64,000 nt of DNA from Candidatus Altiarchaeota archaeon (GCA_043800255.1 JAZDNF010000003.1:47923-111922), one strand, 5' to 3'. Shown: positions 13,123 to 20,662, counted from the stretch's first letter. Program-made: numbers and translations. The notes: generated from the letters alone by a model not told the origin.

Positions 13123-14183
13123 GGGACAAGCAGAAGGAGAAGGAAGACGACAAAGAGCTCATAGGCCTCATAAAAAAAGGCTCGCAGATAAAGGCGCCTG
13201 AACAGGTGTGGCAGACGAAAGTCAGGAGAATAGACGCCTTCGGCGACTTCACGCAAGCATCACAGGAGAGCGGCGAACCGTACACGGTCTCGGACGCGAT
13301 GAAATCGGCCGAAAACTTGGTCAAAGAGCACGGCCTGAAACCCAACCAGGAGGTCACCATCATAACAGAGGACAAAGGCAAGAAAGTAGAGAAGAAGATG
13401 ACATTAGAGCGCATGTCCAGCCTACGCAAAGGAGACAGCCTCTACAAGAAACTCAAAAAAGACGGCGGATGGGTGAAATTCGGAGACGAAGGCCCGGACA
13501 AGGAAACAGTCAAAGCCGTCGTGGGAGGAACCCTCCTCAAAGCAGCAGGCATAATAGCGGAAAAAGTCGAGGAGGGCGAAATACCAGACTCCCAGAAGAA
13601 GAAGGCAGCTGAAGTGGTGGCAAAATGCATAAGAGAATGGGACAGCATACAAGACCAGGGACTGGACCAGACACGAGCAACAGAAGCCTTCGGCGCCCTC
13701 GGAATGACAGGAGGAAGCCCGGGCGGCGGAATCTACCAGCCCTTCTCACGCTACACCGTCGGAATACCCTGGGACTACATCGACACCCAAAGCAGGATAA
13801 TGGCAGCCTGGTGGTTCGACAACGTCAAATGGAGAAGCCAATACTCGATAGTCGGAAAATACGTCTCACTGCCCTGGGCGATAACAAAATACGGCAAAAA
13901 AAACAAAAAGAAGAAAAAAAAATGGAAGAAAAAGGTCAGAAAATTCGAAAAAATGTTCGACCTATTCTACATCAACATAGAAGACGTATTCGACCTCGAC
14001 AACCTAAGCATATGGGACATATTCGAACTCGAAGACTACGGAAAAACAAAACCCACAGGAAAACAATACGAATCCATAAAAAAACTCATGAAAGAACAAG
14101 GCTACTTCAAAGAACAAGAAGCCATCAAAGCAGCAGAAATAACCAGAACACCCCAAACAAGCGACATATTCAAAAAACCCTAA
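13119..14183 (+). CDS. Hypothetical Lys-rich protein in T4SS-like operon
   Basis: GTGA overlap with the previous stop; 354-aa ORF; KKNKKKKKKWKKK tract. Confidence 0.65.
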   Translation: MRDKQKEKEDDKELIGLIKKGSQIKAPEQVWQTKVRRIDAFGDFTQASQESGEPYTVSDAMKSAENLVKEHGLKPNQEVTIITEDKGKKVEKKMTLERMSSLRKGDSLYKKLKKDGGWVKFGDEGPDKETVKAVVGGTLLKAAGIIAEKVEEGEIPDSQKKKAAEVVAKCIREWDSIQDQGLDQTRATEAFGALGMTGGSPGGGIYQPFSRYTVGIPWDYIDTQSRIMAAWWFDNVKWRSQYSIVGKYVSLPWAITKYGKKNKKKKKKWKKKVRKFEKMFDLFYINIEDVFDLDNLSIWDIFELEDYGKTKPTGKQYESIKKLMKEQGYFKEQEAIKAAEITRTPQTSDIFKKP

Positions 14184-15232
14184 GAGGGCACCGTAATACC
14201 CAACCGATTACTAATGTGCTCAAAAACCATCCGCCGGGATGCACAATAATAATCTCGGGTATAGATAGACCCATGCACCTTAAACGCATTATAGGTGCAA
14301 CCCCCATTACATAATTCTTTCCACTTGCAGCCTAGGCAATCTGCTATCCTGTTTCTCGCAAATTTTGGATACGATTCAACCAGAATTTCTTTTAGACTCC
14401 TATCAGATATATTTCCTAATTGCATTGACTTCTCATTAGCAAACGTATCGCAAGGGTAGACATTCCCAAAAACGTCAATATGTATGAGCCGGTCCAGACA
14501 ATTTCCTATGCTCCAACACCCACTAGTTTTATTACTGGTAACAGCATAGGAATATTCCATAAGCGTTTTTATTCTGATTTTATCGAATTGAGGATACCAC
14601 AAATCGAACAGCTCTGTGAGAGCTATGCCATACTCTTGGGGGGTTATAGCAAGAGAGTTATCAGGGGGGTAAGGGCGGATAGGATTTAACCTAAAGCCGA
14701 GATTAATGCTCTTAAAGAAGTTGAGTATCCGGGGTATTTTATTCAAACCTATGCGTGTTAGAATACAGATACATCCGAATCGAACGTTATGCTCTCTAAG
14801 AATTTTAACTGAGTTCATTATATCGTCATGCGTTCCACCTCCATCACAATAGACTCTTTGAGAATCATGGATGTCTTTTGGACCATCAATACTCAGACCC
14901 AAACCGATATTATTATCTTTAATGAATTTGACGGTCTGTTCATCAATCAATGTTCCATTAGTCTGAATCTTTATTTTCATCTCGAGTTTATCCTTGAACA
15001 TTCTTTTTAGGTCCATTACTTCTTCTAAAAACGGAATCTCCTCGATAAAGGGCTCTCCGCCAAAGTATTGGAATGTGACCTTCTTTTTCCCCAATGATAT
15101 TACCTCCTCAAGTATCTTGTTTAATGTATCCAGATCTATCGTGATGTCACCTTTCTCATAAAAACAATATTTGCACGAAAGATTGCACTTCCGCGTTAGC
15201 TCAACTATCACTCCCGCATTTTTTGGGATCAT
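14180..15232 (-). CDS. Radical SAM/SPASM peptide-modifying-type enzyme
   Basis: CNLSCKYC; FGGEP; QTNGTL; SIDGP; SPASM cysteines (CWSIGNC, YPC, CLGC..CNGGC, YYC). Confidence 0.9.
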   Translation of the reverse strand: MIPKNAGVIVELTRKCNLSCKYCFYEKGDITIDLDTLNKILEEVISLGKKKVTFQYFGGEPFIEEIPFLEEVMDLKRMFKDKLEMKIKIQTNGTLIDEQTVKFIKDNNIGLGLSIDGPKDIHDSQRVYCDGGGTHDDIMNSVKILREHNVRFGCICILTRIGLNKIPRILNFFKSINLGFRLNPIRPYPPDNSLAITPQEYGIALTELFDLWYPQFDKIRIKTLMEYSYAVTSNKTSGCWSIGNCLDRLIHIDVFGNVYPCDTFANEKSMQLGNISDRSLKEILVESYPKFARNRIADCLGCKWKELCNGGCTYNAFKVHGSIYTRDYYCASRRMVFEHISNRLGITVPS

Positions 15233-15233
15233 T

Positions 15234-16325
15234 TTAATTGGATGATGTCTGGACTCCTAGTTTCTTTGCGATATGGTCGAAGAGACTCGTGTATCCTTCA
15301 CAATAATAGTCGGGGTGGGATATTGAACCCTGGTACAGAAACGCATTACGCATGCAACCACCCTGACAAACGCGAAGCCAAGTGCAATCATAACATTTCA
15401 CCATTTCGCTCTGTTCTTTGTAAAATGCCAAAAATTTCTTGGAATTTATGATGTCAGGATAAGATTGTTCGTTTATATTGCCTATGCAAAATGCATTATC
15501 TTTCATCTGCCGGTTACATGCAAAAACATCCCCGTCCCATCTTATTCTGAAATATTTACGATGACAATTATGCATTGACATCGACTTTCCCTGTGGGGAG
15601 GCTAACATATTTTTTATAATCTTTTTGAACGTTGTTATTGTGATTTCATGGGAACTGTCAGAGTACCATAAGTCGAATAGACTAACAAATGATTTTCCCA
15701 AGTCCGCCGGCGTTAATCTCAGTTTCTCTTGCCCACAACCATAACCAAGAGGGTATATTTTAAAATTGATTTGATTTTCCCTGAAGAAGTAATAGAGATC
15801 CTGAACAGCATTACCATTAATTTTGCTTAGGACACACACTGCCCTTAATTTCATCTCACGCTCGCGCATAAGTTCAACCGCCCTCATCGTATTATCAAAT
15901 GAACCACTGCCATCCGCATATTTTCGTGTGCTATCATGAATTTCTTTTGGCCCGTCTATGCTCAAATAGATTTTAAAGTTGTTTTCTTGGAACAAATCCA
16001 ACCAATCCTCGTCTAACAATGTGCCATTTGTCACAACAATGTTTTGTATATTGCGACCATCAGAAAACTTTTTTTCGAGTTTTAGTGCAGTTTCAAAAAA
16101 TTTTTTACCAGCTAATAATGGTTCGCCCCCAATCCACTTAAAAGTCACATCATCAAATGCTATTGAGAACGCTTCTGAGATTGACTTCTGCAGTGTTTTA
16201 TGACCCATCAAATTTTTTCCGGAGGATATGTAACAGTAATCGCAAGATAGGTTACATTTATCAGTAACGGTTAAAACAAAATAACTTGGAAATTCACAAG
16301 CCTCAACATCCATACGCCATTTCAC
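15234..16325 (-). CDS. Radical SAM/SPASM peptide-modifying-type enzyme (paralog)
   Basis: CNLSCDYC; IGGEPLL; TNGTLL; SIDGP; CYDC..CQGGC..YYC. Confidence 0.9.
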   Translation of the reverse strand: MKWRMDVEACEFPSYFVLTVTDKCNLSCDYCYISSGKNLMGHKTLQKSISEAFSIAFDDVTFKWIGGEPLLAGKKFFETALKLEKKFSDGRNIQNIVVTNGTLLDEDWLDLFQENNFKIYLSIDGPKEIHDSTRKYADGSGSFDNTMRAVELMREREMKLRAVCVLSKINGNAVQDLYYFFRENQINFKIYPLGYGCGQEKLRLTPADLGKSFVSLFDLWYSDSSHEITITTFKKIIKNMLASPQGKSMSMHNCHRKYFRIRWDGDVFACNRQMKDNAFCIGNINEQSYPDIINSKKFLAFYKEQSEMVKCYDCTWLRVCQGGCMRNAFLYQGSISHPDYYCEGYTSLFDHIAKKLGVQTSSN

Positions 16326-16328
16326 AAC

Positions 16329-17834
16329 CTATGCCTCACAAGGATCAAAACGCTCATCAGAACGATTATCCCAATGATGATCACTATTATCCCAATCAAA
16401 CCAATGATAATCATGATTATCCCAATTATCCCAATTATCCCAATTATCCCTCCAGTAATCCGCCCGCTCCCGAAGTCGCTTCGCTAGTTCCTCATCCTTT
16501 AGCTTATCTTCTGCGATTGTGGCAGCTTTCTCACATTCCTCTATATTGTGAATTCCTTTTTCAGCAACGTCAACCGCTCTACCCCAAAGATCAGCAGCTC
16601 GCGTCTGGTCTCCTAATTTATCAGCAGCAACAGACCCTGTGTGAGCTAGAACCTCAAAATTGTGACTGTTATACACTACAGCAACATTGATAGCACGAGA
16701 CCACCACTTTTTAGCACTCTCAACATCACCAACACGCTCAAAACGATCACCAACACCAACAACACCACCCCAATCAGACTTCACAGAATAACCCCCAACA
16801 GCACGAGACCACAACTTTTTAGCAGTGGCCCTATCACCTACATCCTCAAAACGATCACCAACACCAACAACACCACCCCAATCAGACTTCACAGAAAATG
16901 CCTCGGCAGATTCAGACCACAAACGCTTAGCCGCTACAACATCACCAACACGCTCAAAACGATCACCAACACCAACAACACCCTCCCAATCAGACTTCAC
17001 AGAATAACCCTCAACAGCACGAGACCACAAACGCTTAGCACCCTCAACATCACCGCAATTACGACATTCATCTCCCCTTCGTTGGGTAGTAAACTCGTTC
17101 AACCGTTCGACTTCCGAACGATCTGGTATCGGAGGTGGTTCGGCGAAGTTGCAGCCGGTCAATTTCTTGTATCTGTCATTGGCTTTGGTGTGCGTTGGGT
17201 CGCGTTCGATTTCGGCACTATAACAGCGAACCGCCTTTTTTTCGTCACCTAAGAGTTCGAATGTGTAACCCTGACAGAAATTCGAATTGGGATGGTTGGG
17301 TTCTAACTTTAACGCCTCCCCAAAACAATCTTTCGCCCTGCCTAAACAATCCGACTCATCAGTATGATCCCACAACCGTAATAGATTAACACCCCGGTTA
17401 TGCCAGATTTTAGGAACCTTAGAATCCAACTTCAAAGCATCACCATAAAGCTCATCCGCCCCCCGATATTTATTGACTACCACACTCACATCAGCGCCCG
17501 CCTTCGAAAGACTACGACCCTCAAGAGACAACTGCCGCGCCTCCCCAGCAAGCTGCTCAGCCTTAAGCCTGTTAACGTCTCCAACAGCGCCGGTCTCATC
17601 AGAAAGAACCCTTAAACGGGAATGCGAAGGCTTAACGCCCAAGAACTCCAGAAACTTCCGCCTATGCTGCTCCTCCCTAGCTCCTGCAGACAGCTCCTCG
17701 ATGGGGGATTCAATGTCTTCAACAGGCTGGATCCTGCTCTCCCGCCCAAGCTGACCCTGCTTGATAGGAGGGATACCCTCAAACTGCCCCTCCCTAGAAC
17801 CCACACCCCCGACCTGGGACTTGCGCTTCTGCAT
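16329..17834 (-). CDS. TPR/alpha-solenoid repeat protein with C-terminal (W/H/F)-x-(N/D) repeat tail; candidate rSAM substrate
   Basis: TPRs (IWHNRG, ALKLEPNH); 36-aa repeats; tail YWRDNWDNWDNWDNHDYHWFDWDNSDHHWDNRSDERFDPCEA. Start set at ATG 17834 by homology with the paralog. Confidence 0.75.
   Translation of the reverse strand: MQKRKSQVGGVGSREGQFEGIPPIKQGQLGRESRIQPVEDIESPIEELSAGAREEQHRRKFLEFLGVKPSHSRLRVLSDETGAVGDVNRLKAEQLAGEARQLSLEGRSLSKAGADVSVVVNKYRGADELYGDALKLDSKVPKIWHNRGVNLLRLWDHTDESDCLGRAKDCFGEALKLEPNHPNSNFCQGYTFELLGDEKKAVRCYSAEIERDPTHTKANDRYKKLTGCNFAEPPPIPDRSEVERLNEFTTQRRGDECRNCGDVEGAKRLWSRAVEGYSVKSDWEGVVGVGDRFERVGDVVAAKRLWSESAEAFSVKSDWGGVVGVGDRFEDVGDRATAKKLWSRAVGGYSVKSDWGGVVGVGDRFERVGDVESAKKWWSRAINVAVVYNSHNFEVLAHTGSVAADKLGDQTRAADLWGRAVDVAEKGIHNIEECEKAATIAEDKLKDEELAKRLRERADYWRDNWDNWDNWDNHDYHWFDWDNSDHHWDNRSDERFDPCEA
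16692..17050 (-). repeat. 108-bp (36-aa) tandem repeat, about 3.3 copies
   Basis: agcacgagacc anchors at 16692, 16800 and 17016; unit AKxLWSRAVxGYSVKSDWxGVVGVGDRFExVGD; a near-identical copy lies at 18124-18255. Confidence 0.9.
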
Positions 17835-17864
17835 CAATAGTATAAGAACAACGGCAGAATAAAT
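17818..17864 (-). promoter_or_regulatory. Duplicated promoter/start cassette (copy 1), TATA-like ATTTATT about 25 nt upstream of start
   Basis: 47 nt with 2 mismatches to 19574-19620. Confidence 0.6.
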
Positions 17865-17979
17865 GCCCCCAAAACAATAAAACCCATATCCCCACAATCA
17901 AAATAAACTACGTACAATCATCCGATCGCTCATACTCGTTCACATCGGATAAATCGGCCACATCTTCTTCCTCAATTCT

Positions 17980-19590
17980 TCATTCTGCTTCTTTCTCTCT
18001 TATAACAGCATTCATATACCTTTCGTATAAATTGTCTGCCTTTTCTGGCTTTCCAAGTTTTTGATAGGCATCAATGGCTGCCCTCAAATGTTCTGACAGA
18101 TTAGATTTCTCACCTTCTCCAGCAGCACGAGACCACAACTTTTTAGCAGTGGCCCTATCACCTACATCCTCAAAACGATCACCAACACCAACAACACCAT
18201 CCCAATCAGACTTCTTAGAATAACCCCCAACAGCACGAGACCACAAACGCTTAGCTTGATTGGTGTCGTTTAATTCTTTCTCTGCGATATCCCCACAACG
18301 GCTTATCAAGGCAAAATCGTTTGTTTTCTCAACATTATTAAATGCTTTATTAAACTCCTTAGTAGCCCAACCAAGGAGAACATCCCTTTCACATTTAATG
18401 TCACTATGCGGCCAAAAAGGTTTTTGATTGCCAACTGCGGCAGCCTTATAGCGATACGCCCGCTTTAACCCATCCTCAACACTTTCAATTTGCCGTCTAC
18501 GATAGATATTTCGTAAACCAAAACCCAATCCAATTGAACCAAGTAAAGATGAAATAAGAATAAGATTGTTCTTTATAAAATCCTCAGGCATACTGAGGAT
18601 GCTTTTACCGCTATCCACATCCTCTGTTGAGATATGTTTGGCTGCTGCAAGATGGCCTACGACTTTGCTCGTCGGAGACCGTTCAAGTATAATTGTTCCT
18701 CTGGTTCCCTGACTCCGGTCATGAGGATAAGCCCGCAGGCGCCTGACATCCTGTTCCATCAGCGGCTTAATCTCCTTTACCTTCCGGTTGTTAGGATCGA
18801 GCTTCAATGCGTTATCAAGACAAGGAAGACCCTTATCCGCTAATATGCTGCCAGCATCACCATGCCTTTTGTGGGTCAATGCCAGATGCATCGCCATGAA
18901 ATGCAACGCCTCAGCGTTGTTAAGCCACGCATCAACATTCGACGGATCCCTATCCAACGACTTCCACGTTTCCATCATAGAACGGTCAAGCAACTTCGCG
19001 TCAGCCTCTGAAATGTCAACTCTAAGATTAGAAGAAGGCCGCACCAGCTTAACCCTAAGCGCATTAAGATCGTGCTTGTATGACTGCCTGAACAAGTTGA
19101 GCAGATGACTGCCCCTGTCAAAATGCTCGCCAGCGCTCTCGCCTGACCTCACATCAGGAGAATAAAAATCATGCTGAAACTGCTTTATAGAGACGCCGTT
19201 AACAGACTTGACGTCACCGGTATCAGCGATGAAAGACTTCCCATTCTCGTCAAGGAATATCATACCCTCACGAGGATTCACACTCAATATGGTGCACTCA
19301 ATCTTAGAATTCGCAGAATCGTTGAACTTTACAGACTCCGCACTGGCTCGACTGGGTATCCCAACAGCCAAAGCAAGCGTAAGGCCAGCCGCAACAACCG
19401 CAGTCCTCAAACCCAACGAAAGACCATGATGCCGTCTCCCAGACCCCTCAACAGCCTGAAATCCACCGTCCGCAGACTTAACACCTAAGAACTCCAGGAA
19501 CTTCCGCCTGTGCTCATCCTCCTTGATGTCAGGAAGCTCAACACCGCCATCAGAACGGACACCCCCAGCATTGGACTTGCGCTTCTGCAT
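17980..19590 (-). CDS. TPR-containing membrane protein, paralog of 16329..17834
   Basis: Shared MQKRKS..GGV and HRRKFLEFLGVK N-terminus; signal-like helix ending ASA; TPRs (ALKLDPNN); TM LILISSLLGSIGLGFGL; one 36-aa repeat. Confidence 0.75.
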   Translation of the reverse strand: MQKRKSNAGGVRSDGGVELPDIKEDEHRRKFLEFLGVKSADGGFQAVEGSGRRHHGLSLGLRTAVVAAGLTLALAVGIPSRASAESVKFNDSANSKIECTILSVNPREGMIFLDENGKSFIADTGDVKSVNGVSIKQFQHDFYSPDVRSGESAGEHFDRGSHLLNLFRQSYKHDLNALRVKLVRPSSNLRVDISEADAKLLDRSMMETWKSLDRDPSNVDAWLNNAEALHFMAMHLALTHKRHGDAGSILADKGLPCLDNALKLDPNNRKVKEIKPLMEQDVRRLRAYPHDRSQGTRGTIILERSPTSKVVGHLAAAKHISTEDVDSGKSILSMPEDFIKNNLILISSLLGSIGLGFGLRNIYRRRQIESVEDGLKRAYRYKAAAVGNQKPFWPHSDIKCERDVLLGWATKEFNKAFNNVEKTNDFALISRCGDIAEKELNDTNQAKRLWSRAVGGYSKKSDWDGVVGVGDRFEDVGDRATAKKLWSRAAGEGEKSNLSEHLRAAIDAYQKLGKPEKADNLYERYMNAVIREKEAE

Positions 19591-19620
19591 CAATAGTATA
19601 AGAACAAGGGCGGAATAAAT
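19574..19620 (-). promoter_or_regulatory. Duplicated promoter/start cassette (copy 2)
   Basis: Near-identical to 17818-17864. Confidence 0.6.
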
Positions 19621-19885
19621 AAGGTTTCTGGAGGATAGGATGGGATACTCGTTTTTTGGCGTGGTTTGCTGTCCGGGATGGGAGGGCCTTTTGGCGGTTT
19701 TGGAGGTGCTAATAACTACTAATCACTACTAGATTAGTATTTAGAGTGAAGAGAGTCGGGGGATTAGATTCCGCAGCAGACTAAACGCTCTGGGTTAAGT
19801 GCGTGATTCGGGCGCGGACACAGCCCCACATGCGAACCGTATAGTGAAGGTTCTGGCTGTAAGGACAGTAGATGTCGGCTGGACA

Positions 19886-20662
19886 TCAGCCCTGCCGCAC
19901 GCCCATTGGGTTGACGCCGATGCCTTCATCGATGAAGTACATGTGGTAGGGTTTGTCCTCTGTCTTCGTCAGGCGCATCTTCTCTATGTACAGTCTCCGG
20001 CTGCCGTCGGGGCGCTTCTCCAAAAAGATGACGCCATCGCACTGGTACTCTGAGACTCCGTCAGTTGTTATGGTAAGGACGTTCTCTATGGAAGGGTGAG
20101 CCTCTGCAATCCAGATTGAGGTGACTCCTAGGGATGAGACGTCCTTGATCAATGAGGTTATGTGCTCCCGCCTCACATCCTCAGAAGTGAGGACGAAATC
20201 CCGCTCATCGCTTACCAGGGCAAGATCCTTGGAGGCGTTGCTCCTCAGCAGATACGCGGCGCCGGTGAGCATCGACAGAGAATCCACAGCCAAGACGGTG
20301 ACGCCATCACGGACGTCAGATGATATCATCTCAATCAAAGAGCCCTGATCCTTGGTATAATCCTTCAAAGAGGCGAGCTTGAGAGACTTCCCGAAAATTT
20401 TGTCGATGTTCCAGCTGAAAGACTCCGCCTGCGCGACAAGCTTCTCAACAGACTCCTCAAAAGTCAGATAAAGACACTTCTCCCCTGCAGCCGCCATACA
20501 CGTCAGCATCTGCAAAGCCATCACAGTCTTGCCAGTGCCAGCATAACCTGTGATCAACGCGGAAAAACCGCGGGGGATGCCGCCGCCTATAAGAGGGTCC
20601 AACCCTGGGACTCCAGTCCCGATCCGCTCAACAGAAGATTTAGCCACAAGAGACCACCCCAA
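19886..20662 (-). CDS. KaiC/RAD55-family (RecA-superfamily) ATPase
   Basis: TGVPGLD..GGGIP; Walker A GYAGTGKT; AVDSLS; DGVIFL; IEKMR. Confidence 0.9.
   Translation of the reverse strand: MGWSLVAKSSVERIGTGVPGLDPLIGGGIPRGFSALITGYAGTGKTVMALQMLTCMAAAGEKCLYLTFEESVEKLVAQAESFSWNIDKIFGKSLKLASLKDYTKDQGSLIEMISSDVRDGVTVLAVDSLSMLTGAAYLLRSNASKDLALVSDERDFVLTSEDVRREHITSLIKDVSSLGVTSIWIAEAHPSIENVLTITTDGVSEYQCDGVIFLEKRPDGSRRLYIEKMRLTKTEDKPYHMYFIDEGIGVNPMGVRQG

Follow-up and report, generated by a model that had tools for sequence, protein, structure and literature searches.

A 42-residue tail rich in Trp, His and Asp ends a 501-residue helical-repeat protein of an archaeon and is followed by genes for two dynobactin-type radical SAM/SPASM enzymes (rSAM1 and rSAM2, both DynA-like); this arrangement makes it probable that the tail is turned into rings by cross-linking, much as in a peptide antibiotic. 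Judged from sequence, we consider it probable that the tail constitutes a built-in cyclophane core, cross-linked by the two enzymes on the full-size protein. The locus lies in a 64-kb stretch of DNA (the window) and sits within a mobile, type IV secretion-like element. That the host is an archaeon, as a reading made from the sequence alone (the sequence-only reading) had suggested, was corroborated by the score on the TgtA equivalog (500.7 bits; cut-off 350); neither 16S rRNA nor McrA was found in the 93%-complete genome.

All three genes lie on the minus strand in the order tail protein (16329-17834), rSAM1 (15234-16325), and rSAM2 (14180-15232). The tail protein is the database gene call P0121 with an ATG at 17834, its reading frame being open to a TTG at 17897 (16329-17897, 522 aa). 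Its stop codon (16329-16331) ends 3 nt before the GTG of rSAM1 at 16325, giving an enzyme of 363 aa (359 aa in the database call, from an ATG at 16313), and the stop codon of rSAM1 (15234-15236) lies 1 nt before the ATG of the 350-aa rSAM2 at 15232. Coordinates and sequence thus agree with the tight spacing of a TPR-protein gene and two radical SAM/SPASM ORFs described in the sequence-only reading. Its further observation that no separate small precursor is encoded nearby was confirmed by a scan of 13900-20000 in all frames, which gave no small aromatic-rich ORF. The genes from 17834 to 14180 appear to form a single transcription unit. The conserved region just upstream of the tail-protein gene (17835-17864, minus strand), A/T-rich ~24-30 nt before the ATG, may serve as its promoter, and a terminator-like stem with a T run (14177-14189, minus strand) was noted at the end of rSAM2 by a consensus scan, which found no more such elements than in shuffled sequences.

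Upstream on the same strand, a paralogous repeat protein of 536-537 aa is encoded (17980-19593), sharing the N-terminal motif and the 36-aa repeats of the tail protein and containing hydrophobic segments, yet without an aromatic tail. A direct repeat of 69 nt (17796-17864 versus 19552-19620 at the 5' end of the paralogue, 88% alike) provides each repeat-protein gene with one copy of the 5' region, the upstream part of the first copy being the conserved region at 17835-17864. Foreign codon usage marks paralogue, tail protein, rSAM1, and rSAM2 as one four-gene cassette (14180-19593): 66-72% of their D/N/H/Y/F codons end in T at a GC3 of 0.38-0.44, compared with 0-44% and 0.60-0.71 in the eight other genes of the window that were tested. 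Since protein body and enzymes have the same foreign codon usage, we regard the locus as one cassette and not as a chance junction. All four ORFs are intact (350-537 aa) without frameshifts, and the cassette holds no transporter or protease gene. It was not found in 60 relatives.

The ~500-aa TPR protein proposed initially turned out to be 501 aa long, with TPR_2 (PF07719) at 46.5 bits exceeding the Pfam cut-off of 27. Canonical TPR motifs (TPR_2, TPR_14, TPR_17) occupy 17178-17492 on the minus strand (residues ~136-240 of the 522-aa ORF), followed by a tandem array (3.4 copies) of a 36-aa helical repeat (108 nt) with the motif GDRFERVGD...AKRLWSRAV (16692-17054, minus strand), which is common to the paralogue and P0123 and carries two conserved Trp per copy. 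The predicted model shows an all-helical repeat fold of 20 helices, and the Atlas neighbours of the protein are TPR proteins without exception. AF2 predicts helices throughout the body up to ~residue 472, and pLDDT is below 50 from residue 471 onwards (501 in total), so that the tail is predicted to be disordered and may be accessible. RiPP precursors typically comprise leader and core in less than ~150 aa; the present protein exceeds this size by far and has a folded helical-repeat body, although, like the core of a RiPP, its core-like part lies at the C-terminus. When 5.8 billion proteins were searched with the complete tail protein, only itself and its neighbour were returned, and among 49 genomes of the order (including that of the window) only weak generic TPR matches were obtained.

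The tail (16332-16457, minus strand) comprises 42 residues with seven Trp and six His, starting with YWRDNWDN and finishing with DPCEA; the C-terminal string quoted beforehand matches the protein end exactly. It begins at the point where the last helix of the paralogue ends. Five W-D-N, one W-R-D-N, and one each of H-D-Y, H-W-F, and H-H-W were counted, so that W-x-N, W-x-x-N, and H-x-Y are all represented. The best 30-residue window of the tail holds nine aromatic-x-(N/D/S/K/R/Q/T/Y) triplets, i.e., the repeated aromatic-x-x triplets looked for in a triceptide maturase substrate, and across six frames of the 64-kb window it is the most Trp-rich one (seven Trp versus five in the runner-up). The coding DNA contains the tandem 9-mers that had been pointed out: Tandem Repeats Finder reported the 9-nt unit TGGGATAAT (minus strand), encoding the W-D-N repeats, at 16416-16450 in 3.9 copies of 100% identity, together with a 30-nt unit in 2.4 copies at 16365-16435. 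Being a perfect 9-nt repeat, the W-D-N run could be the product of recent replication slippage, which counts against the core reading. T-ending codons make up 24 of 24 in the tail versus 70% in the body; the GC profile did not set the tail apart from the body, the codon-usage comparison being more informative. The (WDN)2 DNA pattern has no second occurrence in the 1.75-Mb genome, and a Trp-rich tail was found in none of 51 repeat-protein homologues. A tail-word search among shorter proteins yielded one candidate, with none scored, and no shorter protein was seen to have tail words in common. Eight matches of the (WDN)3 DNA pattern in viral contigs were dismissed as incidental 9-nt repeats because the frames were short or implausible and no related protein was present.

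That two radical SAM/SPASM enzymes are encoded could be verified on domain level, with Radical_SAM (PF04055; 67.2 bits in rSAM1, 71.8 in rSAM2, cut-off 29.5) and SPASM (PF13186; 44.1 and 31.3 bits, cut-off 21.5) exceeding the Pfam cut-offs in each. The enzymes are 33% identical to each other and carry the CX3CX2C motif at C24/C28/C31 (rSAM1) and C16/C20/C23 (rSAM2). All 11 conserved Cys, including eight of eight in the SPASM domain, are present in rSAM2; in rSAM1, Ser at position 248 replaces the first auxiliary-cluster Cys, and both were counted as SPASM enzymes with two auxiliary 4Fe-4S clusters despite the seven of eight SPASM Cys in rSAM1. Neither has an N-terminal RiPP-recognition domain. 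The top NCBIfam model for both is DynA (NF041298; 283.3 bits for rSAM1 and 271.8 for rSAM2), below its equivalog cut-off of 450, while the anSME model TIGR03942 gave 242.9 and 212.8 bits, below 349.45. As controls, four true anSMEs reached 390-480 bits on the anSME and 209-248 on the DynA model, and the true DynA P0031 reached 486.2 on DynA and 225 on anSME. Identity of our enzymes to P0031 is ~34% by alignment, and their best relatives are 35-37% identical; no relative was found in 20 genomes of the same family, nor was any orthologous radical SAM pair detected. Complex prediction for rSAM1 together with the C-terminal 60 residues of the tail protein, SAM, and three 4Fe-4S clusters, run without controls, returned scores of 0.00 and 0.01 and no answer, which speaks neither for nor against the proposal.

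Phylogenetic placement is consistent with the model scores. In a tree of 102 rows, both enzymes fell into a 43-row set (SH-aLRT 96) together with true DynA, and a 37-row anSME clade (99) was positioned outside. In a 70-row tree, they were part of a 35-row set (95) with DynA, the anSME rows forming a separate set (100); the branches of the enzymes are long there (~1.16) and their position inside the DynA-containing clade is without confidence. Clustering with sulfatase maturases, named at the outset as an observation that would speak against the proposal, was therefore not seen in either tree. On sequence grounds, the classification of both as putative peptide-maturase-type radical SAM/SPASM enzymes, and not sulfatase maturases, is supported. 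The sequence-only reading had addressed them as triceptide maturases of the XyeB, GrrM, or FxsB type; scores and trees uphold the peptide-maturase part, whereas the nearest characterised family is DynA. On the triceptide models, rSAM1 obtained 100.5 (XyeB, TIGR04496), 140.9 (GrrM/OscB, TIGR04261), 107.5 (FxsB, TIGR04269), and 132.5 bits (YhhB, NF041707), and rSAM2 118.0 (GrrM), 90.4 (FxsB), and 137.0 (YhhB), with XyeB not among the best 25 models listed for it; none of the cut-offs (450, 310, 370, and 445 for XyeB, GrrM/OscB, FxsB, and YhhB) was reached.

Extension of the analysis toward loci of related enzymes showed an adjacent ORF of up to 200 aa with an acidic Trp/His/Tyr-rich C-terminus in 6 of 15 DynA-like loci versus 3 of 120 anSME loci, under neighbour criteria that were picked after the data had been seen; nine of the 15 DynA-like loci have no qualifying neighbour under these criteria. 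Adjacent ORFs of two loci (L101 and L123) encode the dynobactin-like cores W-N-G-N-V-H-T-Y and W-D-Y-N-V-H-Q-W, and a woesearchaeotal locus (L009) has two neighbouring ORFs with H/D/Y-rich ends. The remaining qualifying loci are L071, L077, and L103, the last with a protein of 163 aa. Looser scans of the adjacent ORFs, for Trp-rich windows or for windows rich in W/H/Y of any kind, proved too permissive and were replaced by this stricter C-terminal test, as sulfatases beside anSMEs also score high in them (64 of 120).

Among known systems, DynA/dynobactin of Photorhabdus australis shares the enzyme model and tree clade, a radical SAM/SPASM core without N-terminal recognition domain, and a C-terminal substrate core with Trp...Asn and His-x-Tyr motifs. 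The dynobactin core is given as WNSNVHSYRF (PMC10125368), and a review describes a Trp-Asn C-C and a His-Tyr C-N link, both made by one radical SAM enzyme (PMC11002830). Here, in contrast, two enzymes of 283 and 272 bits (below 450) and ~34% identity accompany a repetitive acidic tail of 42 residues on a 501-aa protein instead of a short precursor, in an archaeal host, on a T4SS-like element, and without transporter or protease. The dynobactin-type core W-x-x-N-x-H-x-Y-x-F is absent from the tail, which presents W-R-D-N, W-D-N-H-D-Y-H-W-F, and five W-D-N, mostly at i,i+2 spacing. Triceptide maturases (XyeB, GrrM/OscB, FxsB, YhhB, WprB) likewise are radical SAM/SPASM enzymes; within an aromatic-x-x triplet, they connect the aromatic ring with a side-chain carbon. 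For WprA, independent modification of three WPR motifs is described (PMC11851443), and the W-D-N triplets fit this logic of repeated, independently modified motifs. However, our enzymes reach no more than 90-141 bits on the triceptide models (cut-offs 310-450), and triceptide precursors are short peptides that are frequently accompanied by a separate RRE or chaperone protein (WprC). The anSMEs have the three-cluster architecture in common with our enzymes and set a precedent for a radical SAM/SPASM enzyme acting on a full-size protein, but differ in model score (243 and 213, below 349), in their separate clade, and in that no sulfatase gene is adjacent here. Nitrile hydratase-like leaders of proteusins are ~70-100 residues long and belong to one defined family. 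They resemble the present protein in placing an unusually large, structured N-terminal part before a C-terminal core (PMC12537861 and PMC10858898); the ~460 residues of TPR-like repeats found here show no detectable relation to them.

Our proposal builds on what was directly observed, namely the order and spacing of the genes, the class and clade of the enzymes, the composition of the tail, codon usage, and the aromatic cores beside related enzymes. We infer from these the modification of the tail, the choice of linked residues, the later cleavage or retention of the tail, and how the two enzymes would share the work, for which the sequence-only reading had suggested possibly different specificities (W-x-N versus H-x-x). 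The substrate would be the disordered C-terminal tail of the repeat protein, with the helical-repeat body taking the role of the usual short leader peptide. Reductive cleavage of SAM by rSAM1 and/or rSAM2 would lead to hydrogen abstraction from a side-chain carbon (C-beta of Asn, Asp, or Tyr), and this carbon would then be bonded to the ring of the Trp or His that precedes it by two or three residues. The expected product would be a series of small cyclophanes, with a mass loss of 2 Da for every ring.

Against this core reading stand the singleton locus, the lack of Trp-tailed homologues, and the auxiliary Cys missing in rSAM1. We regard it as unlikely that the enzymes act on something else, such as the 36-aa repeats with their Trp in one or the other paralogue, a target encoded elsewhere, or a sulfatase-family protein; the tail would then stay unmodified, as an appendix of low complexity, rich in His, Asp, and Trp, that might bind metal. 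A tail unique among 52 repeat-protein relatives and made up partly of a perfect slippage repeat would suit such an appendix, as would enzymes without close orthologues to confirm their partner, and the two conserved Trp in every 36-aa repeat offer other targets. A sulfatase target is suggested by the closest solved structure by sequence, an anSME (PDB 4K36-4K39, E 8e-48 over residues 18-355), and by a sulfatase-family protein with S-A-P-S-H, resembling a formylglycine site. The sulfatase substrate of an anSME is usually encoded nearby, yet PF00884 matches in this genome occur only on contigs C7 and C11, none adjacent to the enzymes, and the S-A-P-S-H protein (C7) lacks the Arg of C/S-x-P-x-R. 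The anSME scores far below both cut-off and true anSMEs, the position outside the anSME clade, the 3-nt and 1-nt gaps to the tail gene together with common codon usage, and the aromatic C-terminal cores adjoining related enzymes all speak against these alternatives.

An ordinary short-precursor cyclophane RiPP cluster, with a peptide translated from a start inside the 3'-terminal part of the repeat-protein gene or a small precursor gene fused to it recently by accident or misassembly, is in our view improbable. In favour of such a cluster, a cyclophane substrate of 501 aa is without precedent in the literature searched, where all characterised substrates of such enzymes are short precursors (PMC11851443, PMC9055067, and PMC11002830), the T-ending codons are more extreme in the tail than in the body, and the 108-nt and 9-nt tandem units are prone to misassembly. 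However, the last ~100 residues contain no Met, no leader-like stretch precedes the tail, the tail starts where the last helix of the paralogue ends, the reading frame is unbroken in the contig, and the body shares its foreign codon usage with the enzymes. The same codon usage, the failure to find the cassette in 60 relatives, and the SPASM Cys lost from rSAM1 would also fit foreign DNA that is in decay and at present serves no function for the host. Four intact ORFs, preserved operon spacing, a complete set of Cys in rSAM2, and the CX3CX2C motif and seven SPASM Cys kept by rSAM1 make this very improbable.

Cyclophane-forming radical SAM enzymes are known to act on short bacterial precursor peptides, with darobactin and dynobactin being antibiotic leads. 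If the tail were unmodified, an orphan DynA-like enzyme pair beside a low-complexity tail would remain; the compact three-gene set suits direct co-expression. If the tail is modified, this chemistry would extend to a full-size protein, with helical repeats replacing both leader peptide and missing recognition domain, and two enzymes encoded on a mobile element of an archaeon would make a polycyclic product in which W-D-N / H-x-Y units are densely repeated. More speculatively, and rather doubtfully, the tail may never be released: a rigid, protease-resistant cyclophane string, a protein-borne counterpart of the beta-strand-mimicking antibiotics, would then end a 55-kDa protein whose body acts as leader and delivery scaffold. 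The conjugative-type element would deploy this protein against competitors or at the surface of the cell, perhaps along with its membrane-anchored paralogue. Such an unreleased, modified tail would represent the first radical SAM cyclophane chemistry serving as a protein modification rather than yielding a small natural product, and the first in Archaea.

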